Counted from the first letter of the stretch, positions 1-47,743 are shown. The stretch is DNA of 64,000 bases from Candidatus Hydrothermales bacterium (GCA_039630575.1 JBCNUW010000002.1:76668-140667), one strand, 5' to 3'. Notes: generated from the letters alone by a model not told the origin. Made by a program: numbers and translations.

Positions 1-186
1 CTCATATTTAGGAGAAACAGAATCTGCTTTCCATTTAATTATTTCTTCTAAAGGAATATTATTTTTTTCTAATAATTCCTTTACTTTTTCACTGTATTTT
101 TTCAACCTCTTTTGCATTTCTTTGGGAGTTTTATATACTACAGGTGGCATAAACCCTTTTCTGTGAGCTATCTTAATCCTTATCAT
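1..186 (-). CDS. Hypothetical protein, partial; the N-terminal ~62 aa are visible and the gene runs off the left edge of the window
   Basis: ATG is the reverse complement of 184-186. The minus-strand reading frame is open to position 1 (MIRIKIAHRKGFMPPVVYKTPKEMQKRLKKYSEKVKELLEKNNIPLEEIIKWK...). It is co-directional with the McrB-like gene 136 nt upstream. No recognisable motif. Confidence 0.3.
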   Translation of the reverse strand, partial: MIRIKIAHRKGFMPPVVYKTPKEMQKRLKKYSEKVKELLEKNNIPLEEIIKWKADSVSPKYE

Positions 187-322
187 TTTTACCTCTTTTT
201 AGTTGAGTTTTTAAACTCTCTTCCTTTGCGGTAAAAATAAAATGTTATAAATATAACCATAAAGCAATATTCTATAGATTGTCAAAATTATTTAAATTAT
301 TTCCTTATTTACCTCTTTTCAA

Positions 323-2383
323 TCACAAATAACTCGCATAGCCATCGGTATAAAGTTTATAAAGCATTTCTAAAACCTTTCTGGCTGTATGGGGAAATTT
401 AAATTGTATTTTTTCCTTGTGTTGCTTTTCATATTTTTCTAAAAATTCATTTATGCCTAAAACATGATTTTTTTCTGTAATTTCCTTTATTTTTTTAATA
501 TTTTCTTCTTTTATTTCCTTTGTCTCTGGCTCCATACACCAATACAGCACCTTTAAAAGTGGTTCTTCAAGTTTTGCTCTATTTCCATGGAATTTGGGAA
601 GAACTTTCATTAAAATGGCAAGGTCAATTATTTCTTCGTCATTTTCAAAGGAGATTATACTTTCTTTCTTAGCTTCTATCGCATTTTTATAAAACAAAGC
701 AATTTCGTCAATAACACGATAGGCAAAATGAAGACCATAAGGTTCAAGGATTTGAGATAAATTTTTTAAATTTTCAAAATAAGGGAACGCTTCTATCGCT
801 TCTTTTATCCTATTTTTATCTGGATATGCCTTTAAAAATTTACCATTTAGTATAAAGTCGTCTTTAATTTTTTTGCTAATTTCCGTTATTGATTCCTTTT
901 CTTCTTTTTCCAAATTTTCTTTATATTTATCAAAATCAACTTCTTTGAATTCAATCGTGAATGCTCTATCTAAAACTTTTGGAGAAAACATAAAGGTTGT
1001 TTCATCAATATTTACGGTTCCAATAAAGTATAAATTTGGTGGAAGTTTTAAATCTATTATATTTTCTTTTGTGTTATAGCCTGCCTGTTCTAAGAGTTCA
1101 AATAGTTTCTTTTGTACTTCTTTTTGTTTATCAATATCTTTACCTGAAATTTGGATCTTAATTCCTTCTTTTGTAAAGCCATCTTCATCTCTTCCACTTT
1201 CAAGAACACTTAAAAATTCAGCAAAATAATATTCAACTCTTGCAAGGTTCATTTCGTCAAGGATTACAAAATATGGTAAAGCTTTATCTTTGTTTTCTTT
1301 ATAATCTATAATTGCCTCCAAAATAAATCTTAAGAACTGTGTCGGCTCTTCAAATCTATTCATAATTGGATTATAATACCCAAGCAATGATTTTGAATCT
1401 TTCCAATCAGGTCGGACGGAGAGGAAGAAAGATTTATTACCAAATATTTCAACAAAAATCTGTGCCATTTTAGTTTTTCCTATTCCAGATAATCCAGCAA
1501 GGATAACAAATCCTTTTGTTTTTAAGGCAGTGTAAAAAGAAGAGATTTGATTATTTTGAAAAAGGAATTTTTTACAACTAAAATATTCTTTTAATATGCT
1601 ATTCCCCATTTTATGGTGATTTTTATTTAAATTTAATTCTTTAAACACATTTTCAATTGTCCTCAGTATTCTTTCTATTTCCTCTTTTTCTTCTTCCCTT
1701 GTTATTGTTTTAAAAAGAGCTTTATGCTTTTCAATTGCTTTTCTCAAAATTTTATTAACATTTTCATTATCTATGTATATGAAAGTTTGTTTAACGGATA
1801 TTTGTTGCTTTTCTTCTTTTTTAGTTTTTGAATATACATCTTTAAAGTCATCTTCATCTAAAAATCCACCATAATGATAAAATCTTATCGCGTTTTCTTT
1901 TTTGCATTTCACACACAAAGGGATAGTTTTTACATTCTTTTTTTTCAATTCCGAAAGCCACTCCTTTTCTACTTTTTCAATTTCAATTTCTATCGGTTTT
2001 ATAAATTGGGGTTCGTACATAAACCCCACAATCCATTTTCTTTTTTCACCCATATTGAATTTTTCTCTTTCTATTTTAGGTACACCTCCTTGGACAATCC
2101 AAAAGAGAATTTTTACTTCTTCTTGAGGTTGTTTCCCTATTAAATGTTGAGCAAAGCTATATCTAAATCCATCTATCTCTAAGGAAGACGCGAAATTCCA
2201 ACTTTCAAAAGGAATAGGGGGTTCATATCCTGAGTATCCAAATCCGCCTGCTGTCCTTTCTGCCTCCTTTTTCAGTTCATCATAGTTATCAGGAAAACCT
2301 TCCCATAATTTTTCACCACACCAGGCTATTCGTACTACTATTCCCGCCTTTTCCTGCTTATTATTTTTCATCTTATCTTTCAT
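323..2383 (-). CDS. McrB-family AAA+ GTPase-like protein with a ~290-aa N-terminal region of unknown fold (type IV restriction-like)
   Basis: Walker A GLSGIGKT. Walker B and McrB-like segments YFVILDEMNLARVEYYFAEFLSVLE and NLYFIGTVNIDETT...SPKVLDRAF parallel McrB DEINRAN... / IIGTMNTADRS...D.ALRRRF. Start reassigned to the internal Met at 2383, which has AGGAGG 5 nt upstream; the ORF-track start at 2422 overlaps the upstream gene by 50 nt. Confidence 0.65.
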   Translation of the reverse strand: MKDKMKNNKQEKAGIVVRIAWCGEKLWEGFPDNYDELKKEAERTAGGFGYSGYEPPIPFESWNFASSLEIDGFRYSFAQHLIGKQPQEEVKILFWIVQGGVPKIEREKFNMGEKRKWIVGFMYEPQFIKPIEIEIEKVEKEWLSELKKKNVKTIPLCVKCKKENAIRFYHYGGFLDEDDFKDVYSKTKKEEKQQISVKQTFIYIDNENVNKILRKAIEKHKALFKTITREEEKEEIERILRTIENVFKELNLNKNHHKMGNSILKEYFSCKKFLFQNNQISSFYTALKTKGFVILAGLSGIGKTKMAQIFVEIFGNKSFFLSVRPDWKDSKSLLGYYNPIMNRFEEPTQFLRFILEAIIDYKENKDKALPYFVILDEMNLARVEYYFAEFLSVLESGRDEDGFTKEGIKIQISGKDIDKQKEVQKKLFELLEQAGYNTKENIIDLKLPPNLYFIGTVNIDETTFMFSPKVLDRAFTIEFKEVDFDKYKENLEKEEKESITEISKKIKDDFILNGKFLKAYPDKNRIKEAIEAFPYFENLKNLSQILEPYGLHFAYRVIDEIALFYKNAIEAKKESIISFENDEEIIDLAILMKVLPKFHGNRAKLEEPLLKVLYWCMEPETKEIKEENIKKIKEITEKNHVLGINEFLEKYEKQHKEKIQFKFPHTARKVLEMLYKLYTDGYASYL

Positions 2384-4001
2384 TTTTTCCTCCTTTTTCT
2401 GGCAGCATTTTACACCATCCAATTCCTTTTATATTATTTTTTAAAATTTCTTCTACATATTCCTTCAAATTTTGGAATTTTTTATTTTCTCCATTTTCTT
2501 TATAAAAATTGCTTTCTTTACCTGGATATAATATTATACATGCCTTTGTTTTTAAAGCATCTTTATAGGCATACATTTTAATTATGTTCCCGGTTTTTGG
2601 AAACTCTCCCTCTTTTTCTGCCTCTTCATACTCGTCTTTTTCATCTCTTTCTATTTGATATTCAAAAGCGAATTTAGCATCAAGAATTAATAGTAGATTT
2701 TTATTTTTATATATTGAAAAATCTGGTCTTAAAGGTAGGGTAGAATAACTTAAGGTGGTATATTGAGATTCTAGTTCGTATTCTTCTCCATTTAAGTCAA
2801 ATTTAAAATTAAGTCTAAAATTTTCTGGAATCTTTTTTTGAGGAATTATTTTAATTTCTTTCGCATTCAAAAGATTGCATAACTCCAAAGCGCACCAAAA
2901 CTCATAAAGTTCATAGACTTTTCTCAAATTTATTGCTTCCTCAATCCTTTCAAACGGTTTACTTGCAAAAAGATATTTTAAATAAAGAGTAAATAATTCT
3001 CTATAACCATCTCTCATCCTTAAAACTGTTGAAGTTTGAGGAAATATATAAAGTTCTCCAACTTCTTCCCATAACGGGTCTTTTAAAAAATCATCAATTA
3101 ACCCCTTTATTTCAATAATTTCTTTAAAGGTTTCCTTTTCAATTTTTGTAAATAAATTTTCAATATCTTGTGAAAGAATTTTAAGGAAATATAAAATGAA
3201 CCTATTTTCAGAATTATCAAGAGATTCATATTTTAAAGGTGATAAAACTTTTATTGGTGCATAATATTTTCCTTCAACTTCAAAACCGTAGCTTTCTGTT
3301 TGGTAAAGAAATTGTGGATTTGTTAAAATATTATAGATTGTGTCTGCATCAATTTCAGAAACTTTATTTATTTCAACAAATTCTTTTTCTTCTTTTAAAA
3401 TTCTATAGGGGTTTGCCCTTATTAAATTTAAAGCACTTTTAAGTTCTTCTTTATTATTTTTTAAAAAGAAAAATGTAAAAAGCGGAGTAGAATGTCTTGA
3501 AGAAATATAAGACGAGGGAGCAAAAGTAGGTGAGATTATATCAAATGGTAAAGCTGCAATATGCTCCCATATTGAAGAAACAATATTCTTATAAAATTTT
3601 GGGTAAAAAAGAGGGTCTTGTTCCTCTGTTTTTAATTTTTTAGAAATAACTTCAACAGGAATTGAAATTTTTTCACTATTTTTCTTTAAAATAATCTCCG
3701 ATTTTCCAATATAGTTTTTAAAAGGACAGTCTTTCGTTTTTGTTATTTTATTATTATTTTTATCTCTTACTATTTCAGTATTTCCAAATTTATCTAATTC
3801 CCATCCATTACTACTTTCAAACTCATAAATCCATAAGTTAGAAAATTTAGGATAATTTTTTAAATTAACTAATTCAATTTTACCTTTTAAAGTCCCGAGT
3901 ATTTCCCCTTTTTTCTCAATCTCTATTTCATTCTTAACTCCTTCTTTTCTTTTAAATTTGAAATCATTAAATTCAATCTCCTTTATATTAATTTCCCCCA
4001 T
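2373..4001 (-). CDS. McrC-like / DUF2357-like PD-(D/E)xK nuclease partner of the McrB-like GTPase
   Basis: Motif LRPDFSIYKNKNLLLILDAKFAF has the same PD...(14 aa)...D-A-K spacing as the E. coli McrC RPDIVI...VLDTKWK core. A downstream MYAYKDAL segment is also present. The gene overlaps the McrB-like gene on the same strand. Confidence 0.55.
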   Translation of the reverse strand: MGEINIKEIEFNDFKFKRKEGVKNEIEIEKKGEILGTLKGKIELVNLKNYPKFSNLWIYEFESSNGWELDKFGNTEIVRDKNNNKITKTKDCPFKNYIGKSEIILKKNSEKISIPVEVISKKLKTEEQDPLFYPKFYKNIVSSIWEHIAALPFDIISPTFAPSSYISSRHSTPLFTFFFLKNNKEELKSALNLIRANPYRILKEEKEFVEINKVSEIDADTIYNILTNPQFLYQTESYGFEVEGKYYAPIKVLSPLKYESLDNSENRFILYFLKILSQDIENLFTKIEKETFKEIIEIKGLIDDFLKDPLWEEVGELYIFPQTSTVLRMRDGYRELFTLYLKYLFASKPFERIEEAINLRKVYELYEFWCALELCNLLNAKEIKIIPQKKIPENFRLNFKFDLNGEEYELESQYTTLSYSTLPLRPDFSIYKNKNLLLILDAKFAFEYQIERDEKDEYEEAEKEGEFPKTGNIIKMYAYKDALKTKACIILYPGKESNFYKENGENKKFQNLKEYVEEILKNNIKGIGWCKMLPEKGGKNER

Positions 4002-4057: not shown

Positions 4058-6784
4058 TTAACTTCTTCCTTCTATCTTCTCAATTCTTACTGCGCATGCC
4101 TTAAATTCAGGAATCCTTGCTACTGGATCTAAGATAGGATTTGTTAATATATTTGCATTTGTCTCTTTAAAATGAAAAGATATAAAAACAACTCCTTTTT
4201 TTGGTCTATCAGAAACTCTTGCATTTATTTCTATACTCCCTCTTCTACTTTTTACCCTTATAAGTTCCCCATCCTTTATATTCAATCTTTCAGCATCCTC
4301 TCTTGATATTTCTACATAATTTTTTGGTACAAAGGATTCAAGCGTTTTCACTCTTTTAGTTTCACTTCTTCCATGATAATGATAAAGAATTCTTCCTGTT
4401 GTTAGGATAAACGGATATTCTTCACAGGGCAATTCTTCTGACTCTATATATTCCACAGGGCTAAATATTGCTTTACCACTTGGTGTTTTAAATTTACCTC
4501 CCTCATAAAGTATTTCAGTTCCAGGATGATTTTCTGAAGGACAGGGCCATTGAATTCCGCCTCTTTCAAGTCTTTTATAGGTAATCCCTGCATAGGAAGG
4601 TGCAACCCTTCTTATCTCTTCCATAATTTCAAGAGGATTTTTATATTCCATTTTGTATCCCATTGCTTTGGCAATTAAAGATAAAATTTCCCAATCGTAT
4701 TTTGTTCCTTCTGGTTTTTCCCTTGCAGGTCTTATTAGTTGAACTCTTCTTTCAGTATTTGTAAATGTTCCATCCTTTTCATAAGCAGATGCAGCGGGAA
4801 GTATTACATGAGCAAGTTCTGCTGTCTCTGAAAGAAATATTTCCTGAACTACAATAAATTCAAGTTTTTTCAAAGCTTTTTCTAAAGTATTTAAATCTGG
4901 ATGTGTCATTAAAGGATTCCCACCCATAACATACATAGCTTTAATTTTTCCTTTTGAAATATAATGAGTAAGTTCTGAAACAAATATTCCAGGACTTGTA
5001 GGTAATTTAACATTCCATTCTTTTTCAAATTTCTCTATAACTAACTGATCTGTTATTCTTTGATTGCCAGGTAAATAAGTAGGTAGAGCTCCCATATCAC
5101 AGGCACCTTGAACATTTGCCTGTCCCCGCAGTGGCATAATTCCATTACCCTTACTTCCTATATGTCCTGTTAAAAGTGTAAGGTTTGCAATACTTAAAAC
5201 AGCATCTGTTCCTGTTGCATGCTGTGTTATTCCCATTGTATAGAAAATCATTGCTTTTTCAGCACTTCCATAGATTTCTGCTGCTTTTTCTATTAAATCT
5301 TTATCAACACCAGTAATTTTTGAAACAAGCTCAAGATCATACTTTGGAATAACTTTTAAGAATTCTTCAAAACCTTCTGTATTTTCTTCTATAAATTTTT
5401 TATTTACATATCCTTTATCTATTATCACTTTCATTATTCCATTTAAAAGTGCTACATCTGTTCCCGGATAATGTTGGATGTATATATCTGCATATTCAGC
5501 AAGGTTTATTCTTCTTGGGTCACATACAATAAGTTTTGCTCCATCCTTTTTATGCTTTTTAACTAATTGGGCAATAACAGGATGTGTTTCTGTCATATTT
5601 GAGCCTATCACAAACATAACCTCTGTATTTTTAATATCTTCAATAGGGTTTGTTGCAGCACCTGCACCGAGCACTTTACTAAGGGCAGCAACACTTGGTG
5701 CATGACATAATCTCGCACAGTTATCAATATTATTTGTTCCAATTACTGCACGAGCAAATTTCTGTAAAACATAATTATCTTCATTTGTGCATCTTGAAGA
5801 ACTAAGGAATGTTATTGAATCAGGACCATATCTTTCCTTAATTTCCTTTAATCTTTTTGCAACATAATTTATAGCCTCTTCCCATTCTATCTCTTTAAAA
5901 ATTCCATTTTCTTTTATAAGTGGCTTTGTTAATCTTTCGTTACTATTTGCATATTCAAATCCGTATCTACCTTTAACACAGAGCCTACCTTTATTAACTG
6001 GTGAATCTTCTTTTCCTTTAGCCATAACAATATTATTATTTTCATCAGTATAAAGAATAACTTCGCATCCCACACCGCAATAAGCACAAACTGTTTCTGT
6101 TTTTTTAAAGTGAAAAATTTTCCCTTTTCTTATCCTTGTTTTTTCAATTAAAGCACCTGTTGGGCAAGCTTGAACACATATCCCACAGAACTCGCACTCA
6201 GTATCTTCAATTGGTAATTCAAAAGGTGTATTTATTTTAGTTTTATAACCTCTACCTACAACGCTTATGGTATTAACTACCGCCATATTCTTACAAGCAT
6301 TTATGCACCTTCTACATAGGATACATTTTTCAGGATAAAATTTTATGAATGAATTTATCTCCCATGCTTTTGTTTCTTTATAAAAGATTTTTACTTTTTC
6401 AAAAAATCTACTATTTGAAATACTATATTTATAAGCAAGATCCTGTAAAAGGCAATCACCATCAGCCTCACAGGTTATACATTCGGGTAAATGGATTGAC
6501 AAAATAAATTCAAGGTTCATTTTTCTTACTTTATGAATTTTTTCACTATCTGTAATTATTTCCATTCCATCTTTTATTTCAGTTATACAGGCTCTTTGGA
6601 GACTTTTAAATCCTTTTATTTCAACAACACATATTCCACAACTTCCTTCTTCTGAAATTTCTTTTAAAAAGCAGAGTGTAGGAATAAAAATCCCTATTTT
6701 TTTACAAGCATCTACTATTTTTATGCCTTGAGGAAAAAGATATTCTTTACCATTTATCTTTACATTTATATATTTTTCATTCAT
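4058..6784 (-). CDS. fdhA: Formate dehydrogenase alpha subunit, molybdopterin-dependent, Cys-type (FdhA/FdsA-like)
   Basis: N-terminal 2Fe-2S (CGICVVEI). Several 4Fe-4S motifs (CITCEADGDC, CILCRRCINAC, CEFCGICVQACP). CAYCGVGC start of the molybdopterin oxidoreductase domain. RLCVKGRYGF at the Sec/Cys active-site position with no in-frame TGA. C-terminal molybdopterin dinucleotide-binding domain. 908 aa. Confidence 0.8.
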   Translation of the reverse strand: MNEKYINVKINGKEYLFPQGIKIVDACKKIGIFIPTLCFLKEISEEGSCGICVVEIKGFKSLQRACITEIKDGMEIITDSEKIHKVRKMNLEFILSIHLPECITCEADGDCLLQDLAYKYSISNSRFFEKVKIFYKETKAWEINSFIKFYPEKCILCRRCINACKNMAVVNTISVVGRGYKTKINTPFELPIEDTECEFCGICVQACPTGALIEKTRIRKGKIFHFKKTETVCAYCGVGCEVILYTDENNNIVMAKGKEDSPVNKGRLCVKGRYGFEYANSNERLTKPLIKENGIFKEIEWEEAINYVAKRLKEIKERYGPDSITFLSSSRCTNEDNYVLQKFARAVIGTNNIDNCARLCHAPSVAALSKVLGAGAATNPIEDIKNTEVMFVIGSNMTETHPVIAQLVKKHKKDGAKLIVCDPRRINLAEYADIYIQHYPGTDVALLNGIMKVIIDKGYVNKKFIEENTEGFEEFLKVIPKYDLELVSKITGVDKDLIEKAAEIYGSAEKAMIFYTMGITQHATGTDAVLSIANLTLLTGHIGSKGNGIMPLRGQANVQGACDMGALPTYLPGNQRITDQLVIEKFEKEWNVKLPTSPGIFVSELTHYISKGKIKAMYVMGGNPLMTHPDLNTLEKALKKLEFIVVQEIFLSETAELAHVILPAASAYEKDGTFTNTERRVQLIRPAREKPEGTKYDWEILSLIAKAMGYKMEYKNPLEIMEEIRRVAPSYAGITYKRLERGGIQWPCPSENHPGTEILYEGGKFKTPSGKAIFSPVEYIESEELPCEEYPFILTTGRILYHYHGRSETKRVKTLESFVPKNYVEISREDAERLNIKDGELIRVKSRRGSIEINARVSDRPKKGVVFISFHFKETNANILTNPILDPVARIPEFKACAVRIEKIEGRS

Positions 6785-8459
6785 GTTTTAAAGGGCATTT
6801 ATTTTCTTTTATATGAAATTCCCATTCTTCTTTAAATTCTTTAATAATATCTTTGATTACTTTTAAAGAGTTTTGACCAAGAGGGCAAAATGAAGAAAGT
6901 TCCATAGTTTCTGCTATTTCAAATAATATGTTAATGTCTTTTCTTTTCCCTTTTATTATATTTTTTATGATTTTTGACGCCTCATAAGTCCCAATTAAGC
7001 AAGGGATACACTTACCACAACTTTCCTCCATAAAAAATTCAATTATGTTCTCTGAAATACAAACTGAACACCTTTTATCATTTATTGCAATTATTGCTCC
7101 TGAACCAAAGGAAAGATTGGCTCTTGATAAAGATTCATAATCCATTTTTATATTAAGATAGGATGGTAATAAAAGATTTCCGGAAAGTCCACCAAGAATT
7201 AAAAATTTTAAATTTCCATCTTTTATACCACCTCCAATTTCTTTTATCACATACTCAAGAGAAGTTCCAAAAGGAATTTCACAAACTCCTTTAAAGTTTA
7301 AATCCCCTGAAAGACTTAATAGTATGCTTCCGTGATTTTTGTAAAAATCTGCTCCTTTTAAAATAATAATAGGTATATTTGCAAAGGTCTCAACATTGTT
7401 TATAAGAGTTGGTTTTCCAAAGAGTCCTTTTTCTGATGGATAGGGAGGTTTTCTTCTTGGTTCACCTCTTTTACCTTCTATTGACTCCATCAAAGCTGTT
7501 TCCTCTCCACATACATAACTTCCTCCACCTTTTATAATTTCAATATCAAAAGAAAAGTTGCTTCCATAGATATTTTTACCGAGAAATCCCTTTTCTTTTG
7601 CTTCATCTATTGCATTTTTTAATATTTTTAAACCACTCTCATATTCTCCTCTAATATAAATAAATCCTTTCTCTGCATCAACTGCATATCCTGCAATTAT
7701 CATCCCTTCAATAACTGAATGAGGATCATTTTCAATTAAAACTCTATCCTTAAATGTTCCAGGTTCTCCCTCATCGGCATTACATATAACAAATTTTGGT
7801 CTCTCTTTTTCCTTTTTTACAAATTCCCATTTTAATCCTGTTTTAAACCCTGCACCTCCTCTTCCTCTTAAATCTGCTTTTTTTATCTCTTCTATTATAG
7901 TTTCTCCTTCTCTTTTTAATGCTATTTCAAGTGCTTTATAACCTTCTCTTTTTAAATAATCTTCAATACTCAAAGGATTTATTTCGTAAACATTTCTTAA
8001 AATAAGTTTTCCATAAGGAGCAGAGATTGGAATCTTCAAAGGCATAGGCTCTTTTTCCTTAAATTCTTTAATTAAATAAGGTATTTTTTCACAAGTTACT
8101 TTTGGTATAAGAACATCATTTATCATAATTGAAGGAGAAAGAGAGCAGGCGCCTAAACAACTTGTGTATTCAAGGGTAAATTCGCCATCAGGTGTTGTGT
8201 TGCCAATTTCAATTTTAAGTAACTCCTTTAATTTTGAAATTATTTTATCCTTTCCTTCTAAGTGGCAGGAAAGGCTTTTACATACTCTTATAATATTTTT
8301 TCCTTTTGGTTTTGTATGAAATAAACTGTAGAAAGATAAAAACTCATAAAGGCTTGCTAATTTTTCTTTCCTTTCTTTTGCTATGATTTTTGCTTTTTCT
8401 TTTTCTACATATCCTTTTTCTTCATGAATTCTATTTATTAAAAATTTATTATCATCCAT
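6777..8459 (-). CDS. NuoE-NuoF fusion (24 kDa + 51 kDa NADH dehydrogenase-like subunit; FdsG/FdsB-like diaphorase)
   Basis: N-terminal thioredoxin-like 2Fe-2S segment (RVCKSLSCHLEG...CLGACSLSP). RGGAGFKTGLKW FMN/NADH site. C-terminal CGKCIPC 4Fe-4S. Overlaps fdhA by 8 nt. Confidence 0.8.
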   Translation of the reverse strand: MDDNKFLINRIHEEKGYVEKEKAKIIAKERKEKLASLYEFLSFYSLFHTKPKGKNIIRVCKSLSCHLEGKDKIISKLKELLKIEIGNTTPDGEFTLEYTSCLGACSLSPSIMINDVLIPKVTCEKIPYLIKEFKEKEPMPLKIPISAPYGKLILRNVYEINPLSIEDYLKREGYKALEIALKREGETIIEEIKKADLRGRGGAGFKTGLKWEFVKKEKERPKFVICNADEGEPGTFKDRVLIENDPHSVIEGMIIAGYAVDAEKGFIYIRGEYESGLKILKNAIDEAKEKGFLGKNIYGSNFSFDIEIIKGGGSYVCGEETALMESIEGKRGEPRRKPPYPSEKGLFGKPTLINNVETFANIPIIILKGADFYKNHGSILLSLSGDLNFKGVCEIPFGTSLEYVIKEIGGGIKDGNLKFLILGGLSGNLLLPSYLNIKMDYESLSRANLSFGSGAIIAINDKRCSVCISENIIEFFMEESCGKCIPCLIGTYEASKIIKNIIKGKRKDINILFEIAETMELSSFCPLGQNSLKVIKDIIKEFKEEWEFHIKENKCPLKHE

Positions 8460-12647: not shown

Positions 12648-12907
12648 TAATTTTTATCTCAAGTTTTTAAAATCTATCCTCATCAATTTCATTTTCTTCA
12701 AACCCTTTTTACTTTTTTTATTTCTTTGCTCATCAAACTTTCAATTTGCTTTCAAATAAATAAGTTTTTCTTCAATTTTTTTATCTACCATCTTTTCCCT
12801 CATTTCCTGATCTTAAGCTCTTTAGTAAGTGATTTTTAAATAATTCCCCGAATCCTTAACTTGATTAGTTTTGCTATGTCTTTATTTACTCTTTTATACT
12901 TAATTAA

Positions 12908-14164
12908 ATGTACAATTTAATTTTTTTCCTTTTTATTCCTTTTGAAAAATCAACTGTAAAAGTTCATCTCTCGAAAAACTATATCCTTTATAACCTTTAC
13001 TTTGTAAGAGAAAATGAATTTGAAATCTATAAACCATTTTATTTTAACCTAAAGGAGTTTTTGTATTTTAAAAAATTCAAGAATAGAATAACTCCCTATT
13101 ATATTAGATACGATTGGGATATAGGAATATACAAAAACTTTCCAAAATACTCTGTTAAGTTCTTTTTTAACCATGTTTGTAATCATGGACTTGACAATGA
13201 AGGAAAGGACAGAAGACAGTGGAATCAAATTGGATTTAAGTTGTCTTTTAAAAAAGAAAAATTTTATCTTTCTAATTCAATCGGTTATGTAACTTCACCT
13301 TTCGGACCAAAAAGAATTCACAACAATTATTACTGGATTTTTTCACATATTCTTGCTTATAAAAAGGATTATAAAAAACTTTCAATCATTTTTAAACTTG
13401 ATCTTACTGGATTCTATACATTAAAATCTTTGGTATATGAAAAAAACATTAAAATTTATCTTCAAAAAAACGAATTTTATTTTGGAGCCAACAAAGAAGT
13501 TAAATATGGTCTTTTAGGAAAAAACGATGAAAAATTTGTTTTTCAAAATATTTTTTGGGGCATATTTAAAAATATTGATAACCTTCACTTTCTGTACGGC
13601 TATTTTTTAAAAAACATAAAACATAGTTTTTTTTCAAAAACCCTTGTAAAATATAAAATTTTTAAAAATATAAAAATCTTACTTGACATAGAAACAGTTA
13701 GTTTCCCCAAAATGCAAAGACCAAGATTTGACGACTTTAAAATAGGCAATGAAATTGAATTAAAAAATTTAAAAATTACCCTTTATCACAGAGAAAGAAG
13801 GGATGACAATTTATTTGACGGTAAAACAGAAAAATATAAAAAACTTAAAATAAACTTTTTAAATCTATCTTTTGGATTTTCATTCGATAGAAAACACTAC
13901 CCTTTTTACCTATATACTAACTTATTCTTTGAAAAAAATCTCTACAAAAATAAAATATTCACTATCAAAAATATATCTTACATAACTTTTTTGATAGGAA
14001 AAAAAGAAAAAGGCTTTATTTTTGAAAATGGACCCTCTATTTCTATAGTTAAAAATAAAATACTCGGACTTTCATTTCTAATTAGAATAAGCACAGAAAA
14101 CGTTTTCTATAGCTACAGCTTCTTGGAAAAAAGAATATTTATATTCACTAATATTTTCAATTAA
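12908..14164 (+). CDS. Hypothetical K/F/Y/N-rich protein, possibly an outer-membrane beta-barrel
   Basis: 418 aa with alternating aromatic/hydrophilic stretches and no recognisable catalytic motif. 55 nt upstream of the large activase gene on the same strand. Confidence 0.35.
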   Translation: MYNLIFFLFIPFEKSTVKVHLSKNYILYNLYFVRENEFEIYKPFYFNLKEFLYFKKFKNRITPYYIRYDWDIGIYKNFPKYSVKFFFNHVCNHGLDNEGKDRRQWNQIGFKLSFKKEKFYLSNSIGYVTSPFGPKRIHNNYYWIFSHILAYKKDYKKLSIIFKLDLTGFYTLKSLVYEKNIKIYLQKNEFYFGANKEVKYGLLGKNDEKFVFQNIFWGIFKNIDNLHFLYGYFLKNIKHSFFSKTLVKYKIFKNIKILLDIETVSFPKMQRPRFDDFKIGNEIELKNLKITLYHRERRDDNLFDGKTEKYKKLKINFLNLSFGFSFDRKHYPFYLYTNLFFEKNLYKNKIFTIKNISYITFLIGKKEKGFIFENGPSISIVKNKILGLSFLIRISTENVFYSYSFLEKRIFIFTNIFN

Positions 14165-14219
14165 AATTAAATCACAAATTTGAAAAAAAGAAAAAAAATT
14201 TTTTAAAATACAAAACAAC

Positions 14220-17200
14220 ATGAGAAAAATTGGAATTGACATAGGCAATCTATACCTAAAAGCAGTAAAAGTTGAAGATAATAAAATAAAAGAAAAATTA
14301 ATGATTTTCCATAAAAAAGAGGTAATTCCCATTCTAAAGGAATTTCTAAAAGACAAAGATTTTTGTATAGGATTTACAGGCTCTTTTATAAAAGAATATC
14401 CTCCAGATTTCCCATACTTTGAGGAAGTGAAATCGCTTATCTTCTCAGTCAAAAAACTTTACCCTTTTGTAAAGTATATTTTTGATATAGGAGCAAATTC
14501 ATCAAAAATTATAGAAATTGATGAAAATGGAAATTTAAAAAATATTTACAAAAACTATCTATGTGCTGCAGGAACAGGAACATTCTTTGACCAGCAGATA
14601 AAAAGACTTTCCCTATCGTATGAAGAAATTGAAAATTGGAATATTCCTATAAATAACATTCCCCCAATAGCTTCAAGATGCACAGTCTTTGCAAAAACAG
14701 ATTTAATTAATAGACAACAGGAAGGATATTCAAAAAAAGAAATATGGGCAGGCCTATGCAAAAGTCTAAGTAAAGGAATTTTAAATTCTCTCTTAAAAGG
14801 GAAAAAGATAGACGGTAAATTAATACTTGCAGGCGGTTTATCAAAAAACAAATTTTTTGTTAACTATTTAAAAGAAGAGTTAAAAGATTTTTTGATAGAA
14901 AGTGAACTATCTCCTTTTCTCGGTGCAATAGGCGCAGCTTTTTTATCAGATATAAAATTTAACAAAGACTTTATTTTCCATTTAGAAAATTCCTTAAAAG
15001 AAAAAAAACATAAAAAAATAAGTAGAGCCCCTCAACTTACGCTTTTGAAAAGTAAACACATAGAAAAAAAAGATTTTCACGAAGAAGAAATTGACGGTGT
15101 TGAAGTAAGAATTTACAACATAAAAGAAAACCAGGAGTTAAACGTTTATTTTGGTATAGATATAGGATCTACAAGTACAAAATGCGTTTTAATGGATGAA
15201 AACTACACAATTCTTATTGATCTTTACACAAGAACAAAGGGCGAACCTATCAAAGCTACAAAAAAAATTCTTGAAACAATACTAAAAATTAAAGAAAAAT
15301 TCAATTTAAAAATAAACATCATCGGCTGCGGAACAACAGGCTCTGGCAGAAAAATTGTAGGTGAGTTCATTGGTGCCGATATAATTGTAAATGAAATCAC
15401 AGCCCATGCAAAAGGCGCTTTAAAAGTTCACAAAGATGCAGAAGTCATATTTGAAATAGGTGGCCAAGATTCAAAATATATAAGACTTAAAAATGGGAAA
15501 GTATATGAATGCAACATGAATTACATCTGCTCAGCAGGAACTGGCTCATTTATCGAAGAAGAGGCAAACAAATTGGGATTTAATATAAAAGAACTGGGAG
15601 ATCTGCTAAAAGATATTTCTCCACCCCAAATCGGTGAAAGATGCACAGTATTCATGGATCAAGACATTGAAAAACTTCTTTCTTTAGGTTTTACAAAAGA
15701 AGAGGTTATGGGTGCCTGTATATATTCAATTGCCCATAATTATTTAAATAAGGTTGTTGGAAAGAAATATATTCCAAAAGGAAAGATAATCTTTCAAGGA
15801 GCAACTGCAAGAAATAAAGCCCTTGTTGCCGCCTTTGAAAAAATATGCGACAGAGAAATTGTTGTCTCCCCATACTCTCATATTATGGGTGCCTATGGAA
15901 CCGCTATAATCTTAAAGGAAAATTTAAAAGACAAAACAAAATTTAAAGGATTTGAAATAAAAGATGAAGAAGAAAAAATCTGGTATGAAAATTGTATTCT
16001 TTGTGAGAATAAATGTAAAATAACCTATTTAAAAAGTAAAGACAAAGTTGTTTCTTTCGGCTATCAATGTGGAAGAGAACCCGATGATAATAAAAAGAGA
16101 GAAAGAGAAGAAATCTCCCTTTTTAATTTTTATAAAAACGAAGCTTTTAAACTCTCCCAATCCAAAAACAATTTAAAAATATATATTCCAAGAATTTTAT
16201 CCTCCTACTCCTTATTTCCACTTTACAAAACATTTCTTGAAAATCTCGGATATAAAGTTTTAGTCTCTAAACACCCAGATAGAGAAAGTATTGAAAAGGG
16301 AAAAGAATTATCTTCTTCTGAATTCTGTTTACCTGTAAAAGTTTCTTTTGGACTTATATCAGAAATTCTTGATAAAGATGCTTTAATATTTTTACCTTGG
16401 ATAATAAACTATCCTTCAAAAGATAAAGGTTATAATTATTTTTGTCCCTATGTGGAATCAGGTGCGGGTTATATTTTTTCAACTTTTAAATCAAAAGGTA
16501 TAAAGGAAGAAAAATTTTTAACACCTGTATTTGATTTTCTTTTCCCGGGAAATTTATACAAGTATTTTGAAAAGTTGGGTATTAATAAAAATAAAGTAAA
16601 AAAGGCTTTAAAAGAAGGAATTAAAGCTCAAAAAATATTTGAAGAAAAAATTAAAAGGGAAAAAGAAAAAATTTTACAAGAGATTAGAGATAAAAATAAA
16701 AAATTTATTGTTCTTTTTGGTAGACCTTATATAATATTCTGTGATAGTTTAAACCTTTTAATACCTTTAAAGTTTGCAAATATGGGCCTAAAAGTTATCC
16801 CTTGGAATTTTCTTGCAGGAGAAGAAAGTGAAATTCCAATAAAGAATATGTACTGGTATTATGGAAAAAGAGTAATTGAAGTTGCAGAATTCATAAAGGA
16901 TAAAGAAAATCTTTTCCCTGTTTATCTTTCCTGTTTTTCCTGTGGACCTGACTCTTTTTTACTTTCTTATCTTGAAGAAATTTTTAAAGATAAACCCTTT
17001 TTAATTCTTGAACTTGATGAGCACGGAGGAGAAGCAGTATTTCAAACAAGACTTGAAGCCTTTTACGATGTGATAAAAGATTATAAACAGGATAAAAAAA
17101 TCTTTCATATTTCAAAAGAACTTGAGAGAAAAGATATATATTCAAGAACAATATGGATTCCATCTATGCACCCAGAAGGTGCACGTCTATTTGCTGCAAG

Positions 17201-18287
17201 CTTTAGGAGGTTTGGACTTAAGGCAAAGGCGCTTCCCTTATCTGATGAAGAACATCTAAATACCGGAAAGAAGTTCTTAAGAGGTTCTGAATGCCTCCCA
17301 TGTGCACTTACTCTTGGAACATTTATTTATGAAATCAAAAAAGAAGAAAATGATAAACACACACTTTTTATGCCAACTTCAAGTGGTCCATGCAGGTTTG
17401 GTCAGTATGCAAATCTTCATAAAATTATATTTGAAAGAGAAAAAATGGATGTAGAAATACTTTCACCAAATTCCTACAATGCCTATGAAGGTTTACCAAA
17501 AGAATTAAGAAAATTTTTGTGGACCACAATACTAATATTTGATTCACTTTTAAAAGCAAGAAATAGAGTAAGACCTTATGAGAAAAATAAAGGAGAAACA
17601 GATAGAATTTATTTTGATTCAATAAACAGGATGGAAGAGATAATTGAAAGTGGAGAAGATCCTTATTTATGTTTAGAAGAATGTTTTAATAATTTTTCAA
17701 AAATAGAAAGAGAAAATGTTAAAAAGCCCCTTGTAGGTATAGTTGGTGAAATATATGTAAGGTTAGATCCCTTTTCAAATGATGATGTTATTCAATCTGT
17801 TGAAAAATGCTCCTGTGAAGCCTGGCTTTCACCGGTTTCAGAGTGGATATGGTATACTGATTTTACAGCAAGATGGAGAGCAAAAAATAAAAGAAATTTG
17901 AAAGAATATTTGATAACACTCTTAAAGAATAGATTTTTTAGAGAAATTGAAGAAAAAATTTATGAAATAACAAAAGATGTGATAGGAGATAGAAAAGAGC
18001 CTGAAATTGACGAAATTATGAAAAAAGTAGAAGAATTTATTCCTTATAATTTTGGAACTGAAGCACCTTTAACTATTGGAAGAGCGATTATTTTTAAAGA
18101 GCAAGGAGCAAAAGCAGTTATAAATGTCTCTCCTTTCACTTGTATGCCTGGAAATATTTCTCAAGCCTTTTCTCATTTTATTTCCTCTAAAATAAATATT
18201 CCGTTTATAAACATTTTCTATGATGGACAAAAAGGGAGTAACGAAGACCTTGAAATATTTTTAAGAAATCTTGTTACATCTGAATAA
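14220..18287 (+). CDS. Double BadF/BadG/BcrA/BcrD-type (ASKHA) CoA-enzyme activase fused to a 2-hydroxyacyl-CoA dehydratase-like C-terminal domain (1355 aa)
   Basis: Two activase modules: GIDIGNLYLKAV...CAAGTGTFFDQQ, and GIDIGSTSTKCVL...CSAGTGSFIEEE with GGQDSKYI. The long C-terminal region is the fused dehydratase-like domain, assigned from the architecture of known activase-dehydratase fusion proteins. Confidence 0.7.
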   Translation: MRKIGIDIGNLYLKAVKVEDNKIKEKLMIFHKKEVIPILKEFLKDKDFCIGFTGSFIKEYPPDFPYFEEVKSLIFSVKKLYPFVKYIFDIGANSSKIIEIDENGNLKNIYKNYLCAAGTGTFFDQQIKRLSLSYEEIENWNIPINNIPPIASRCTVFAKTDLINRQQEGYSKKEIWAGLCKSLSKGILNSLLKGKKIDGKLILAGGLSKNKFFVNYLKEELKDFLIESELSPFLGAIGAAFLSDIKFNKDFIFHLENSLKEKKHKKISRAPQLTLLKSKHIEKKDFHEEEIDGVEVRIYNIKENQELNVYFGIDIGSTSTKCVLMDENYTILIDLYTRTKGEPIKATKKILETILKIKEKFNLKINIIGCGTTGSGRKIVGEFIGADIIVNEITAHAKGALKVHKDAEVIFEIGGQDSKYIRLKNGKVYECNMNYICSAGTGSFIEEEANKLGFNIKELGDLLKDISPPQIGERCTVFMDQDIEKLLSLGFTKEEVMGACIYSIAHNYLNKVVGKKYIPKGKIIFQGATARNKALVAAFEKICDREIVVSPYSHIMGAYGTAIILKENLKDKTKFKGFEIKDEEEKIWYENCILCENKCKITYLKSKDKVVSFGYQCGREPDDNKKREREEISLFNFYKNEAFKLSQSKNNLKIYIPRILSSYSLFPLYKTFLENLGYKVLVSKHPDRESIEKGKELSSSEFCLPVKVSFGLISEILDKDALIFLPWIINYPSKDKGYNYFCPYVESGAGYIFSTFKSKGIKEEKFLTPVFDFLFPGNLYKYFEKLGINKNKVKKALKEGIKAQKIFEEKIKREKEKILQEIRDKNKKFIVLFGRPYIIFCDSLNLLIPLKFANMGLKVIPWNFLAGEESEIPIKNMYWYYGKRVIEVAEFIKDKENLFPVYLSCFSCGPDSFLLSYLEEIFKDKPFLILELDEHGGEAVFQTRLEAFYDVIKDYKQDKKIFHISKELERKDIYSRTIWIPSMHPEGARLFAASFRRFGLKAKALPLSDEEHLNTGKKFLRGSECLPCALTLGTFIYEIKKEENDKHTLFMPTSSGPCRFGQYANLHKIIFEREKMDVEILSPNSYNAYEGLPKELRKFLWTTILIFDSLLKARNRVRPYEKNKGETDRIYFDSINRMEEIIESGEDPYLCLEECFNNFSKIERENVKKPLVGIVGEIYVRLDPFSNDDVIQSVEKCSCEAWLSPVSEWIWYTDFTARWRAKNKRNLKEYLITLLKNRFFREIEEKIYEITKDVIGDRKEPEIDEIMKKVEEFIPYNFGTEAPLTIGRAIIFKEQGAKAVINVSPFTCMPGNISQAFSHFISSKINIPFINIFYDGQKGSNEDLEIFLRNLVTSE

Positions 18288-19290
18288 GTTCTTTATTATA
18301 AGCAAATATACTGAAGATTCCACCAGTATGTAAAAATAAAATTTTTTTAAACTCTTTTGACTCATTCAGCATACCATAAAAAGCTTTACCTGTGTAAACA
18401 GGATCTAAGATTATTCCGTAATTTTCTGAAATTTTCTTAATCAATTCAATTTCTTCTTTATAAGGAATTCCGTATCCTTCACCTATATATCCATCTACAA
18501 GTTCAATATCTGAAGGGGATATCTCTATTGGTAAATTGTATTTTTTAATTGCCTTTTCACATATATCTTCAATTTTTCCTTTAAAGAATTTAATAGAATC
18601 ACAAACAATGATACCAACAAGCCTTATATCTAAATTAAGTAGTTTCTTGCCAATTAAAAGACCTGCATAAGTTCCACCTGATCCAACTGCTAAATATATG
18701 GCTTCGATTTTTTCTTTTTTAATAAATTCTTTCATTTCATCCATACATTCAACATATCCAAGGCATCCAACTTCATTTGAGGCTCCTTCAGGAATTATGT
18801 AAGGTTTTTTATCTTTCTTTTTTAAATCTTCTGCAACTTCTTCAAGTATTTCATTTATCCTTTCTTTATATTCATTGTAACTTACATACTTTATTTTTGC
18901 TCCAAAAAGGTAATCAAGAAGTAAGTTCCCTTGATATTCCGTAGGTTCTCCTCTTAAAACAAGATGAACCTCAAAACCTTCTCTTTTACCTGCATAAGCA
19001 GTAGCTCTACAGTGGTTTGACTGCAATCCACCACAGGTAATTAAAGTATCACATTCTTTTTCTTTAGCATCAAATATAGCATATTCAAGTTTTCTTATTT
19101 TATTTCCAGAAGTTATAAGTCCTGTATAGTCATCTCTTTTAATATACACTTTAGCATTATTCCATAGATTTTCTAACAATTCTATCTTTGTAGGTTTCCA
19201 TGCAAGATTTATTTTTCGTTTTTTTAATTTTTCAAAAATCTTTTTCATGGTAATATTATAATCAAAATGTTTTAATTTTTTAAATTTCAA
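18274..19290 (-). CDS. dcyD: PLP-dependent D-cysteine desulfhydrase / ACC deaminase family protein
   Basis: YIKRDDYTGLITSGNKIRKLEY...GGLQSNHCRATAYAGKREG is typical of the ACC deaminase/DcyD fold-type II family. Convergent with the activase gene and overlaps it by 14 nt. Confidence 0.75.
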   Translation of the reverse strand: MKFKKLKHFDYNITMKKIFEKLKKRKINLAWKPTKIELLENLWNNAKVYIKRDDYTGLITSGNKIRKLEYAIFDAKEKECDTLITCGGLQSNHCRATAYAGKREGFEVHLVLRGEPTEYQGNLLLDYLFGAKIKYVSYNEYKERINEILEEVAEDLKKKDKKPYIIPEGASNEVGCLGYVECMDEMKEFIKKEKIEAIYLAVGSGGTYAGLLIGKKLLNLDIRLVGIIVCDSIKFFKGKIEDICEKAIKKYNLPIEISPSDIELVDGYIGEGYGIPYKEEIELIKKISENYGIILDPVYTGKAFYGMLNESKEFKKILFLHTGGIFSIFAYNKELIQM

Positions 19291-46858: not shown

Positions 46859-47743
46859 CTAATCATTCATAAGCTCTTCAATCTTTAAAAGAATTTTCAG
46901 ATGTGAAGATGGGTCAAAAGGGTCATCAGGATAATCTATCCAACCTGATAACTTTAACACATCAACTGCATTTGCGTAAAGTCCTTCTTTAAAGTAAACA
47001 TAAGCAGCTGCTCCAAGTATGTTAGTGAATTTAATAAAAGGATAGTGAGGAAAATAGAAAGCCCTACTTCTTTTTGCAAGTGAATAGAGATATTCAGCAG
47101 ACAAAGATCTTTTATCTTGAGCAAGATAAATCAAACCAATCCCTGCCCATGCCCAGAAGAATATATCGTCTGTTGGACTTTGAGGTTTATAATAGGTATA
47201 GTCAATATAAGTTACAGTATCAGGTGGTGTCCCTTTAAAATAAACAAGAGTATCATCAAAATAAATTGGGCTGTGAACATCAGCTGGTGCTTCGATAACA
47301 TTTGCGATCCATACTATATTCCTCTTTTTTGTCTTTATCGCCCAAGTGGCTCCGTAAGGTAAAGACTGTGGCCTTATAACAGTAGCTACTTCCTTAAACC
47401 TTCTCTCGACAAGAGATATTCCGTCAATTGCAAGTATAAGAGAAAAATAAGAAAGAGCCGAAGATAGATCATAATCCTTTTTTGAAATTAAAGTATAACC
47501 TTTACCAAGTAAAGCTTCTCTATCACGTAGATTCAAAGTTATAAGAGAATCAAACCAGAATTCTGCAACATCAAATTCTCCCCTATCATAATAATCCCAA
47601 GCCCTCTGAAGTATAAGATCCCTCGAGGGTTCTGCCTCAAATTCAGGTTCTTCTTTCTTACATGACATAAGAAAATATATTATTGAAAAAAACACAAAAA
47701 GATATTTTATTTTTTTCATTTTCCCCTCCTTATTTTGTATCAA
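46859..47743 (-). CDS. Lipoprotein with TPR-like repeats
   Basis: Signal peptide with lipobox-like LMSC. Helical repeats. Confidence 0.45.
   Translation of the reverse strand: MIQNKEGKMKKIKYLFVFFSIIYFLMSCKKEEPEFEAEPSRDLILQRAWDYYDRGEFDVAEFWFDSLITLNLRDREALLGKGYTLISKKDYDLSSALSYFSLILAIDGISLVERRFKEVATVIRPQSLPYGATWAIKTKKRNIVWIANVIEAPADVHSPIYFDDTLVYFKGTPPDTVTYIDYTYYKPQSPTDDIFFWAWAGIGLIYLAQDKRSLSAEYLYSLAKRSRAFYFPHYPFIKFTNILGAAAYVYFKEGLYANAVDVLKLSGWIDYPDDPFDPSSHLKILLKIEELMND

Follow-up and report, generated by a model that had tools for sequence, protein, structure and literature searches.

Two adjacent genes on the minus strand of the window (the whole analysed stretch of 64,000 nucleotides, from a thermophilic Candidatus Hydrothermales bacterium) most likely encode a restriction system of the McrBC type that is driven by NTP and belongs to the 'NxD' branch, probably a Type IV, i.e. 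modification-dependent, system directed against foreign DNA. The system is real and of an ordinary kind, with a rare reader head. Conceptually it holds nothing new: swappable readers of the PUA type are an established feature of McrBC enzymes, and an in-silico catalogue of the NxD branch exists already. The first-pass annotation had proposed the pairing of an McrB-like NTPase with an McrC-like PD-(D/E)xK nuclease, and this was borne out by the domain matches, by the motor profile and by conservation of the pairing across distant taxa.

The gene pair and its surroundings

An ORF of 542 aa with an ATG start is followed by one of 686 aa with an overlap of 11 nt, and all motifs quoted in the first-pass annotation were found in the two ORFs. 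The features of the locus are listed below.

2373..4001, minus strand: McrC-like nuclease gene (542 aa), first of the pair, from its ORF, Pfam matches and homologous partners beside NxD McrB genes
3723..4001, minus strand: N-terminal extension of the McrC-like protein, aa 1-93, outside the Pfam matches and without an assigned domain
2982..3722, minus strand: DUF2357 domain (PF09823), aa 94-340
2514..2912, minus strand: PD-(D/E)xK nuclease domain (PF04411), aa 364-496, with E367, D427 (RPDFS) and D441-A-K443 (LDAKF)
2373..2395, minus strand: gene junction read from the sequence, with the AAGGAGG ribosome-binding site (2389-2395), the ATG (2381-2383) and the McrC-like stop codon (2373-2375)
323..2383, minus strand: McrB-like NTPase gene (686 aa), stop codon 323-325
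1769..2356, minus strand: predicted modified-base reader domain, aa ~10-205, YTH/EVE-like PUA fold, with the family-conserved W21, E60, W62, N63, F64 and G120
1598..1768, minus strand: helical linker from reader to motor, aa ~206-262
326..1597, minus strand: McrB-type AAA+ NTPase core and C-terminal helical part, aa ~263-686, from homologues and profile A1
1472..1495, minus strand: Walker A / P-loop GLSGIGKT, aa 297-304; G, GK and T invariant in A1; aligns with GPPGTGKT of Thermococcus gammatolerans McrB (TgMcrB)
1232..1258, minus strand: Walker B region DEMNLARVE, aa 376-384; D-E-M invariant in A1; aligns with IIDEINRGN of TgMcrB
995..1024, minus strand: shortened McrB signature loop IGTVN-I-D-ETT, aa 454-463; NxD followed by E

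The overlap agrees with the earlier placement of the 542-aa gene upstream of, and overlapping, the GTPase gene. The longest downstream ORF comprises 699 aa from a TTG; the 686-aa reading uses the ATG at 2383, which lies 5 nt behind the AAGGAGG sequence. The same junction, as an overlap or a gap of no more than 35 nt, is present in homologous loci, and the overlapping junction suggests that the two genes are co-translated. The gene order had been described as inverted. The nuclease gene does come first, but this is not special to the locus: nuclease-first genes that overlap, as in the window, or lie closely adjacent are the standard layout of the whole clade, i.e. of the DUF2357-type/NxD branch. 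The order was the same in each of the six comparison loci where the pair is complete; these represent archaea, bacteria and a Thermococcus plasmid. The NTPase gene is directly preceded by a DUF2357 gene in L001, L002/L003, L004 (Methanocaldococcus), L005 (Pyrococcus) and plasmid pTBMP1 of T. barophilus, and homologous McrC-like partners adjoin NxD McrB genes in L001, L002/L003, L004, L005 and L023. The clade is rich in hyperthermophilic archaea.

As the first-pass annotation had it, the rest of the window, where sampled, is core-like, with genes for housekeeping functions (cell-wall synthesis, a TonB receptor, formate-dehydrogenase-like genes), and a third gene follows on the same strand. This gene has its start at 186; the 137-nt gap in front of it contains a promoter-like site, TTGACA/TATGGT. 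It was rejected as a third component, having a homologue only in the sister MAG and not beside other McrBC loci, and being separated by the gap with the promoter-like site. A mobile island found no support, with no tRNA nearby and a base composition that is not unusual. The PADLOC candidate-defence model PDC-M26A matched the NTPase (E 2.2e-55) as well as its homologues; a literature search on PDC-M26 found no paper. A homologue in WOR-3 adjoins CRISPR-Cas genes.

The two genes could also be the nuclease side of a classical restriction-modification system. The pair would then cut unmodified DNA at specific sites, restrained by a methyltransferase whose gene lies elsewhere, as in PcaI, LlaJI, LlaI and BsuMI. 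The PcaI pair of Pectobacterium, an AAA+ GTPase with a DUF2357 protein, restricts unmethylated DNA and has a cognate methyltransferase (PMC8989522), many NxD GTPases are associated with methyltransferases (Bell et al., PMC11090510), and the left edge of the window lies 322 nt past the pair. However, no methyltransferase was called or annotated beside the homologous loci examined (L001, L002/L003, L004, L005 and pTBMP1), and the only DNA-methyltransferase motif in the 60 kb to the right was one SPPY tetrapeptide, in a 1147-aa ORF 45 kb away without a Pfam match. In addition, the head of the NTPase has the predicted fold of a modified-base reader and not that of a site-specific DNA-binding domain. 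We therefore regard the restriction-modification explanation as improbable.

In the sister MAG GCA_039630235.1 the homologous locus consists of several short ORFs, with ILDEM of Walker B changed to IPDEM, and carries different specificity parts; its different position fits a simple inversion of ~14 kb. Such breakage and such changed specificity parts are the turnover expected of defence genes. The broken sister locus with its altered Walker B, together with the extreme rarity of the window's reader version (2 sequences worldwide), would also suit a decaying or domesticated remnant devoid of restriction activity. Nevertheless, both window genes are of full length with all catalytic and family-invariant residues intact, the strong ribosome-binding site and coupled junction have been kept, and the only close relative (P0002) retains 67% identity over the whole protein with a conserved reader core, all of which makes a remnant very improbable.

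The nuclease and motor subunits

The 542-aa protein matched Pfam DUF2357 (E 2.9e-44) over the full length of the profile (positions 6-251 of 251) and PDDEXK_7 (E 4.6e-11). The PD...D-A-K core previously noted in this protein was thus confirmed by PF04411, with an intact E...D...DxK site, RPDFSIY being located at 425-431 and ILDAKF at 439-444. Residues E367, D427, D441, A442 and K443 were invariant in alignment A8 (5 sequences, the most distant 31% identical to the window protein), while the extension of aa 1-93 varied in length and sequence among the same homologues. With ~540 aa the protein is indeed much longer than E. coli McrC, which has 348 aa, but the length is the norm of the DUF2357-type/NxD branch rather than special to the locus, and the Methanocaldococcus partner also comprises 542 aa. 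No match to PF10117, the 'McrBC' family of canonical McrC, was obtained at E<=1, in contrast to the McrC of L016, which matched PF10117 at 1.4e-71. The McrC-like profile found no match among solved structures by sequence, and no PADLOC model matched the nuclease partner, either here or in four homologous loci. The combination of DUF2357 and PD-(D/E)xK domains is the McrC architecture as described (PMC11090510). DUF2357 is the N-terminal domain of McrC, and in solved McrBC complexes it touches the McrB ring and switches it on (Bell et al. 2024, PMC11090510); by analogy, it would do the same in the present system.

The 686-aa protein is identical (100%) to P0001, a protein of a 'Candidatus Hydrothermales bacterium' MAG. 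As had been proposed, its NTPase core is restricted to the C-terminal part (~425 aa), and in this motor core it shares 45-66% identity with over 100 homologues, among them several named 'McrB family protein'. When profile A1 of the motor family was compared with the PDB, T. gammatolerans McrB (6ut3, E 1.4e-6) and E. coli McrB (6hz4, E 2.9e-5) were recovered, and only McrB structures reached significance. On the other hand, a single-sequence phmmer search of the 686-aa protein against the PDB gave no match, and Pfam AAA_5 scored 19.7, under its cut-off of 22 bits. Since profile A1 alone detects the relationship, the homology of the motor to the solved McrBs, as judged by these searches, is remote.

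The Walker B region reads FVILDEMN (372-379) in its fuller form, and LDRAF occupies 471-475. The signature loop aligns with IIGTMNTADRS (NxxD) of TgMcrB with a deletion of one residue, so that the NxD variant is found instead of the canonical NxxD form, and GTVN[IMVL]DET occurs in 36/36 of the motor family members listed. On the strength of this NxD-E signature in the sequence, the 686-aa protein is assigned to the 'NxD' branch defined by Bell et al. 2024, in which no McrB has been characterised biochemically (PMC11090510). The non-canonical McrB homologues LlaI.R2 and BsuMI.R2 hydrolyse both ATP and GTP (bioRxiv 10.64898/2026.08.31.748284). Nucleotide specificity is not readable from the sequence, and GTP would be the presumed nucleotide.

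The predicted N-terminal reader domain

The N-terminal motifs were located at 18-30 (RIAWCGEKLWEGF), 92-102 (ILFWIVQGGVP) and 117-125 (WIVGFMYEP). The region had been left unassigned and considered possibly novel, and direct comparisons agreed with this: no match was found in Pfam, NCBIfam or PADLOC, and an exhaustive phmmer search with residues 1-200 against 1.84 billion representatives returned no sequence other than P0002 and the protein itself. When the two-sequence alignment or a typical family member was used in word-indexed searches, essentially nothing was obtained, and known members were missed as well. The domain was assigned by bridging via the N-termini of its own motor family, where hhalign tied it to a recurrent domain family (96.1%, E 3.7e-9). 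On the predicted fold given below, the novelty is that of a new sequence family within a known type of reader. The earlier description of the N-terminus as Cys-containing carried no signal: the 290 aa hold four Cys (22, 157, 160 and 270) of the five in the whole protein, and none of them is conserved across the wider domain family.

An AF2 model from a 15-sequence alignment (pLDDT 69.9, i.e. moderate; pLDDT 34 with the two-sequence alignment) predicted the fold of YTH/EVE PUA-like readers, with a PUA-like beta-barrel. It ends in a long C-terminal helix (segment residues 199-224, protein residues 206-231), which belongs to the linker of ~55 aa; many homologues align with this stretch in their pre-motor region. 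Residues W21, E60, W62, N63 and F64 hardly vary within the family and may contribute to a pocket. The least confident loops of the model (protein residues 21-34 and 44-58) hold W21 and directly precede E60-F64, and these residues are therefore pocket candidates rather than an established pocket.

No match to Pfam YTH, EVE or ASCH was found in 26/26 members of the reader family at E<=0.1, nor did the family profile match the PDB by sequence; the family, which is concentrated in hyperthermophiles, is likewise absent by sequence from Pfam and NCBIfam. It has its own specific set of motifs, IAW / E-x-W-N-F / VGF. The reader may also resemble the start of bacterial proteins named 'HNH endonuclease' (RICWN..GW...GFGHEEWLF); in this connection tblastn found the T. 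barophilus plasmid alone among plasmids and nothing among phages, and the possible likeness carries no weight in the assignment. Members are fused to NxD McrB or inserted within it (L012), are fused to a canonical NxxD McrB that is followed by a PF10117 McrC (L016), and are fused to NucS_C PD-(D/E)xK nucleases (L014, L015, L017 and L019). This shuffling matches the behaviour of Type IV specificity modules. The window reader strongly diverges from the other members of this family, which is not yet catalogued but has, on the predicted structure, the known YTH/EVE fold. An apparent orphan, with 2 sequences in 1.84 billion, thereby became assignable to a family shuffled among NxD McrB, canonical McrB and NucS-type nucleases in thermophiles.

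The best fold matches of the reader model are RNA m6A readers, and RNA targeting has been predicted for part of the NxD branch (Bell et al., PMC11090510). The system might accordingly sense modified RNA (e.g. m6A-bearing tRNA, rRNA or viral transcripts) and serve in abortive infection or in an RNA-directed response, the role put forward for the CoCoNuTs within that branch. The hallmarks of CoCoNuTs (a long coiled coil, HEPN or another RNase, a cold-shock or SmpB-like domain, a helicase partner) were, however, not found, and the sole nuclease is an intact PD-(D/E)xK domain. Moreover, the reader family also occurs on NxxD McrB with PF10117 McrC and on NucS_C nucleases, which are DNA enzymes, and in T. 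gammatolerans McrB the YTH-like N-domain is DNA-binding (PMC7544203). RNA sensing is therefore unlikely, and modification-dependent restriction of DNA is preferred.

Proposed mechanism and known systems

For such a Type IV system, the N-terminal YTH/EVE-like PUA domain would read a modified base; this base would probably flip into an aromatic/polar pocket formed by the conserved residues named above. The helical linker would couple the reader to the McrB-type AAA+ motor, which may form a ring upon nucleotide binding. The DUF2357 domain of the 542-aa subunit would then enter this ring, whereby NTP hydrolysis and DNA translocation would be stimulated, and the DNA would be cut by the PD-(D/E)xK site (E367, D427, D441 and K443). 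It is conceivable, though unlikely, that the reader family reads a modification outside those of all characterised Type IV readers, e.g. one typical of thermophile viruses, that the window's offshoot has shifted again, and that the NxD motor and nuclease-first operon differ from canonical McrBC in activation or nucleotide. As a compact, thermostable two-gene representative of the NxD branch with a clean architecture, the system would be convenient for studying how the short signature loop and the partner of DUF2357 type work, and it might provide a modification-dependent nuclease that is thermostable and new to epigenetic mapping.

E. coli K-12 McrBC (6hz4, 6ut6) is likewise a two-subunit, nucleotide-driven, modification-dependent nuclease with a homologous motor (profile E 2.9e-5), but it differs from the window system in its DUF3578/ADAM-type reader, its NxxD signature, its PF10117-type McrC and the position of mcrB before mcrC. 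McrBC of T. gammatolerans (6ut3/6ut5, motor and complex; 6p0f/6p0g, N-terminal domain) has NxxD in place of NxD-E, and its reader shares no detectable sequence similarity with that of the window, although the predicted fold is alike. Its genes are described as lying in the order B then C; in the related canonical locus L016, B is followed by a PF10117 McrC, whereas in the window the DUF2357/PDDEXK_7 partner comes first. The predicted reader fold is already known from the McrB N-domain of Staphylothermus marinus (6n0s, EVE-like). Both this domain and that of the EVE-HNH enzyme VcaM4I (6yex) are PUA-superfamily readers on Type IV nucleases, without a sequence-profile relationship to the window reader.

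With the NxD branch (PMC11090510) the window system shares NxD followed by Glu and a DUF2357-containing McrC partner, and the variable GTPase inserts of that branch are seen in its close relatives P0002, P0009 and L012. The rest of the branch has methyltransferases and two-component genes, neither of which is present at the window locus. CoCoNuTs, which unlike the present clade are nearly absent from archaea (PMC11090510), share the NxD motif only, the window system being without their long coiled coils, tandem/HEPN nucleases, helicase (CnuH) and CARF. PcaI and LlaI/BsuMI resemble the window system in combining an AAA+ McrB-like motor with an McrC-like nuclease partner (with DUF2357 in PcaI). 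PcaI acts with a methyltransferase, and LlaI.R1 and BsuMI.R1 are separate DNA-binding subunits, whereas the window locus has neither a methylase nor a conserved third subunit. Finally, PcaI attacks unmodified DNA and LlaI/BsuMI are site-specific, whereas the head of the window protein has the predicted fold of a modification reader.

The gene pair, its nuclease and its motor

The two minus-strand genes described in the first-pass annotation were confirmed by the ORF calls, and all motifs quoted for the two proteins were found in place. The recognition of the genes as a McrBC-like pair was likewise correct.

2373-4001, minus strand: McrC-like gene, 542 aa, upstream member of the pair
2383 (start ATG) to 323 (end), minus strand: McrB-like NTPase gene, 686 aa, downstream member of the pair

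The genes overlap by 11 nt. Since an AAGGAGG box, read from the sequence at 2389-2395, precedes the ATG at 2383, this was considered the best start for the 686-aa gene, whose product is identical to P0001, a database protein from a 'Candidatus Hydrothermales bacterium' MAG. A formate-dehydrogenase-like gene ends 56 nt upstream of the McrC-like start, and because of this short distance transcriptional read-through into the restriction genes is possible. The upstream stretch (4058-8459, minus strand) holds two genes with overlapping frames, a formate-dehydrogenase-alpha-like one of 908 aa (Fe-S/molybdopterin) and a NuoF-like one of 560 aa. On the other side, a third gene (start 186) lies on the strand of the pair, 137 nt beyond it; the spacer contains a promoter-like site, TTGACA-18-TATGGT. 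For this partial gene (1-186, minus strand; MIRIKIAHRKGFMPPVVYKTPKEMQKRLKKYSEKVKELLEKNNIPLEEIIKWKADSVSPKYE...), a 64%-identical homologue occupies the same relative place in a sister Hydrothermales MAG (GCA_039630235.1), and none was found beside the other McrBC loci.

Elsewhere in the window, two large ORFs lacked a Pfam match at E<=1e-5. One, of 1147 aa (47730-51173, minus strand), contains one SPPY tetrapeptide and nothing else methyltransferase-like. The other, of 418 aa (12908-14164, plus strand), adjoins a BcrAD_BadFG/DUF2229 CoA-enzyme-activase-like gene and is kept in the sister MAG with about 71% aa identity.

The 542-aa protein matches Pfam DUF2357 along the whole length of that family (E 2.9e-44, residues 94-340), followed by PDDEXK_7 (E 4.6e-11, residues 364-496). 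DUF2357 plus a PD-(D/E)xK nuclease is described as the architecture of McrC (Bell et al. 2024, PMC11090510); in solved complexes it is DUF2357 that touches the McrB ring and activates it (PMC11090510). The protein has no match to PF10117, to which Pfam assigns canonical McrC, and no solved structure was found by a profile of five McrC-like sequences. When it was aligned with four partners from other loci, the most distant of them 31% identical to it, E367, D427 (RPDFS) and D441-A-K443 (LDAKF) were invariant in all five sequences. Its length, noted earlier as far above that of E. coli McrC, is normal for this type, as homologous partners have 500-590 aa and the Methanocaldococcus partner also has 542 aa.

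No Pfam AAA family matched the motor, i.e. the AAA+ core of the 686-aa protein, above threshold (AAA_5, 19.7 bits versus a cut-off of 22), nor did phmmer find a PDB match to it. For the C-terminal ~425 aa the databases yield more than 4,800 matching proteins, the nearest of them from WOR-3/Hydrothermales bacteria and many, with 45-53% identity, from Thermococcus, Pyrococcus, Methanocaldococcus and Archaeoglobus; several sources label these homologues 'McrB family protein'. A ten-sequence motor-only profile matches McrB in 6ut3 (T. gammatolerans, E 1.4e-6) and in 6hz4 (E. coli, E 2.9e-5); the match that comes next, to a dynein heavy chain (E 0.006), is a generic AAA+ one. In the profile alignment GTVN-VDETT of the motor family stands opposite GTMNTADRS of McrB. 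The NxxD of the McrB signature has thus become a shorter NxD with a Glu behind it, a form seen in all family members inspected. This signature defines the 'NxD' branch (Bell et al., PMC11090510), of which, according to the same authors, no McrB has been characterised to date. The PADLOC candidate-defence model PDC-M26A matches the NTPase (2.2e-55) as well as its homologues, and no PADLOC model matches the nuclease partner.

The N-terminal head and its sequence family

The head of the 686-aa protein had been described as matching no recognised reader domain, and in direct searches this holds. An exhaustive phmmer search with residues 1-200 against 1.84 billion representatives returned only the protein itself and P0002, a metagenomic homologue 68% identical within these residues. 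P0002, the only close relative of the window protein, has this head too and in addition ~160 aa inserted after Walker A, which may be a second specificity module. The insertion (residues ~300-460 of P0002, itself encoded at L001, 2228-4588) lies directly behind the Walker A helix, a site where other family members have inserts as well.

The family link was found through the motor family. In a filter-free local phmmer search against the 120 retrieved motor homologues, the head aligned weakly but colinearly with the N-termini of six, which have the common pattern GIVxxIAW..RWkGF ... YGFeYv..G.aHEWWNFY. A profile of the window's protein and P0002 matched that of the six N-termini with 84.6% probability over 189 columns, and that of 24 family members with 96.1% (E 3.7e-9, 192 columns). 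Scanning 185,579 species genomes with the pattern yielded 15 additional reader-family loci, mostly from Thermococci, Archaeoglobus/Geoglobus, Desulfurococcales and Thermoplasmatales, and also from single Methanocalculus, WOR-3 and unclassified-bacterial MAGs. The window's head is a far-diverged offshoot of the reader family.

The reader domain is present in about 15 of 121 retrieved proteins and is found in different contexts. It forms the N-terminus of NxD McrBs, or follows other N-terminal modules; in an uncultured bacterium MAG (L012, 3983-4567) it interrupts the NxD NTPase, following LDRANTIEF, and so separates the alpha/beta subdomain from the helical lid, and at L016 it is carried by a canonical NxxD McrB. 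In Desulfurococcales MAGs (L014, L015, L017, L019) the reader and a C-terminal NucS_C PD-(D/E)xK nuclease (NucS_C E 3.6e-14) make up single chains of ~390 aa, which have the look of self-contained modification-dependent nucleases in hyperthermophilic archaea. W21, E60, W62, N63, F64 and G120 (numbering of the 686-aa protein) are near-invariant. No consistent Pfam or NCBIfam family was matched by any member, and no PDB sequence by the family profile.

A second recurrent, mostly helical module was observed in the N-terminal regions of P0003/L018, L009, L016, P0085, P0086 and L022; in many members of the family it stands ahead of the reader or of the motor. The module, with motifs such as ...SFLAFL... 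and ...EA(R/F)YYM(V)KY / EVAFYLSKY, is sometimes repeated, and it has no Pfam match.

AlphaFold2 failed with the two-sequence alignment (pLDDT 34); with 15 sequences pLDDT 69.9 and pTM 0.72 were obtained, the strands and the terminal helix being well predicted and residues 21-34 and 44-58 forming poor loops. YTH was the top fold match of the head. The top-ranked Foldseek match, not significant, was again the N-domain of T. gammatolerans McrB, a YTH-like DNA binder that prefers N6mA-containing DNA (summarised in PMC7544203). As modeled, the head thus appears to have an established reader fold, put to its established use, with a sequence family that is new. A YTH match would also suit RNA sensing, as proposed for the CoCoNuTs, which are part of the NxD branch. 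However, the CoCoNuT hallmarks are all absent, and this reader also comes attached to DNA nucleases; we consider RNA sensing unlikely.

Comparison loci and turnover

Both genes of the pair were recovered at six more loci, and in all of them the DUF2357/PDDEXK_7 gene lies directly upstream of the NTPase gene, with an overlap or a gap of <=35 nt.

Loci with a complete pair, nuclease gene first
Metagenomic contig of P0002
Two WOR-3 MAG contigs
Methanocaldococcus bathoardescens
Pyrococcus horikoshii
Plasmid pTBMP1 of Thermococcus barophilus

In the WOR-3 MAGs (L002/L003, 3765-14682) overlapping genes flank the pair, PDDEXK_3 before it and a 242-aa gene with no assigned function after it. Type I CRISPR-Cas genes (Cas6, Cas7/DevR, Cas5d) lie ~2 kb away, for which reason the stretch looks like a defence island.

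In the sister MAG, with ~84% nucleotide identity to the window in neighbouring conserved genes, a homologous McrBC locus adjoins the same downstream gene (L022 contig end, 1-3400). Comparison of this stretch with window 288-2732 and 12906-19233 showed the genes of this locus fragmented into short ORFs, with Walker B changed from ILDEM to IPDEM. In place of the window's reader, of which no trace was found in the L022 locus, it has a helical module at the N-terminus and ~230 aa inserted behind Walker A. The conserved neighbouring block has the opposite relative orientation in L022, a layout that fits a ~14-kb inversion. The decay of the sister locus would agree with the window's pair being an inactive remnant, but both window genes are intact and this is very improbable. 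Together with the WOR-3 homologue adjoining CRISPR-Cas genes and one Thermococcus homologue being located on a plasmid, the turnover patterns agree with a defence gene pair that evolves fast. A mobile island at the window locus is not supported, as neither a nearby tRNA nor a compositional anomaly was found.

Mode of action and relation to known McrBC systems

The domain identities, the intact motifs, the co-conservation of the genes, and the modular behaviour and predicted fold of the reader were all established above. The best-supported reading is that the pair is probably a restriction enzyme of McrBC build that depends on modification and is driven by a nucleotide. In such an enzyme the reader would select modified DNA, the motor ring would translocate, and the partner, through its DUF2357 domain, would activate hydrolysis and bring in the PD-(D/E)xK nuclease. 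Ring assembly, activation, substrate and nucleotide are what we infer for the pair, and ATP is also used by related non-canonical motors. A restriction-modification type of enzyme that cuts unmodified DNA, like PcaI, has little probability: no DNA-methyltransferase motif was found near the pair in the window, no methyltransferase is called or annotated beside the pair in the six comparison loci, and the head has a predicted reader fold.

The first-pass annotation had considered the inverted gene order unusual. In an Archaeoglobus locus, whose McrB is of the canonical NxxD type, the usual order is seen instead, the gene for a PF10117 McrC following downstream. Since the nuclease gene comes first in all six pair loci, the 'inverted' order is a character of the clade. 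Both seemingly unusual features thereby dissolve, the order being the norm of the branch and the head a divergent PUA/YTH-like reader by its predicted fold. The remaining interest lies in a reader family of thermophile restriction systems that had not been catalogued, and in a clean example of the NxD branch, whose biochemistry is unexplored.
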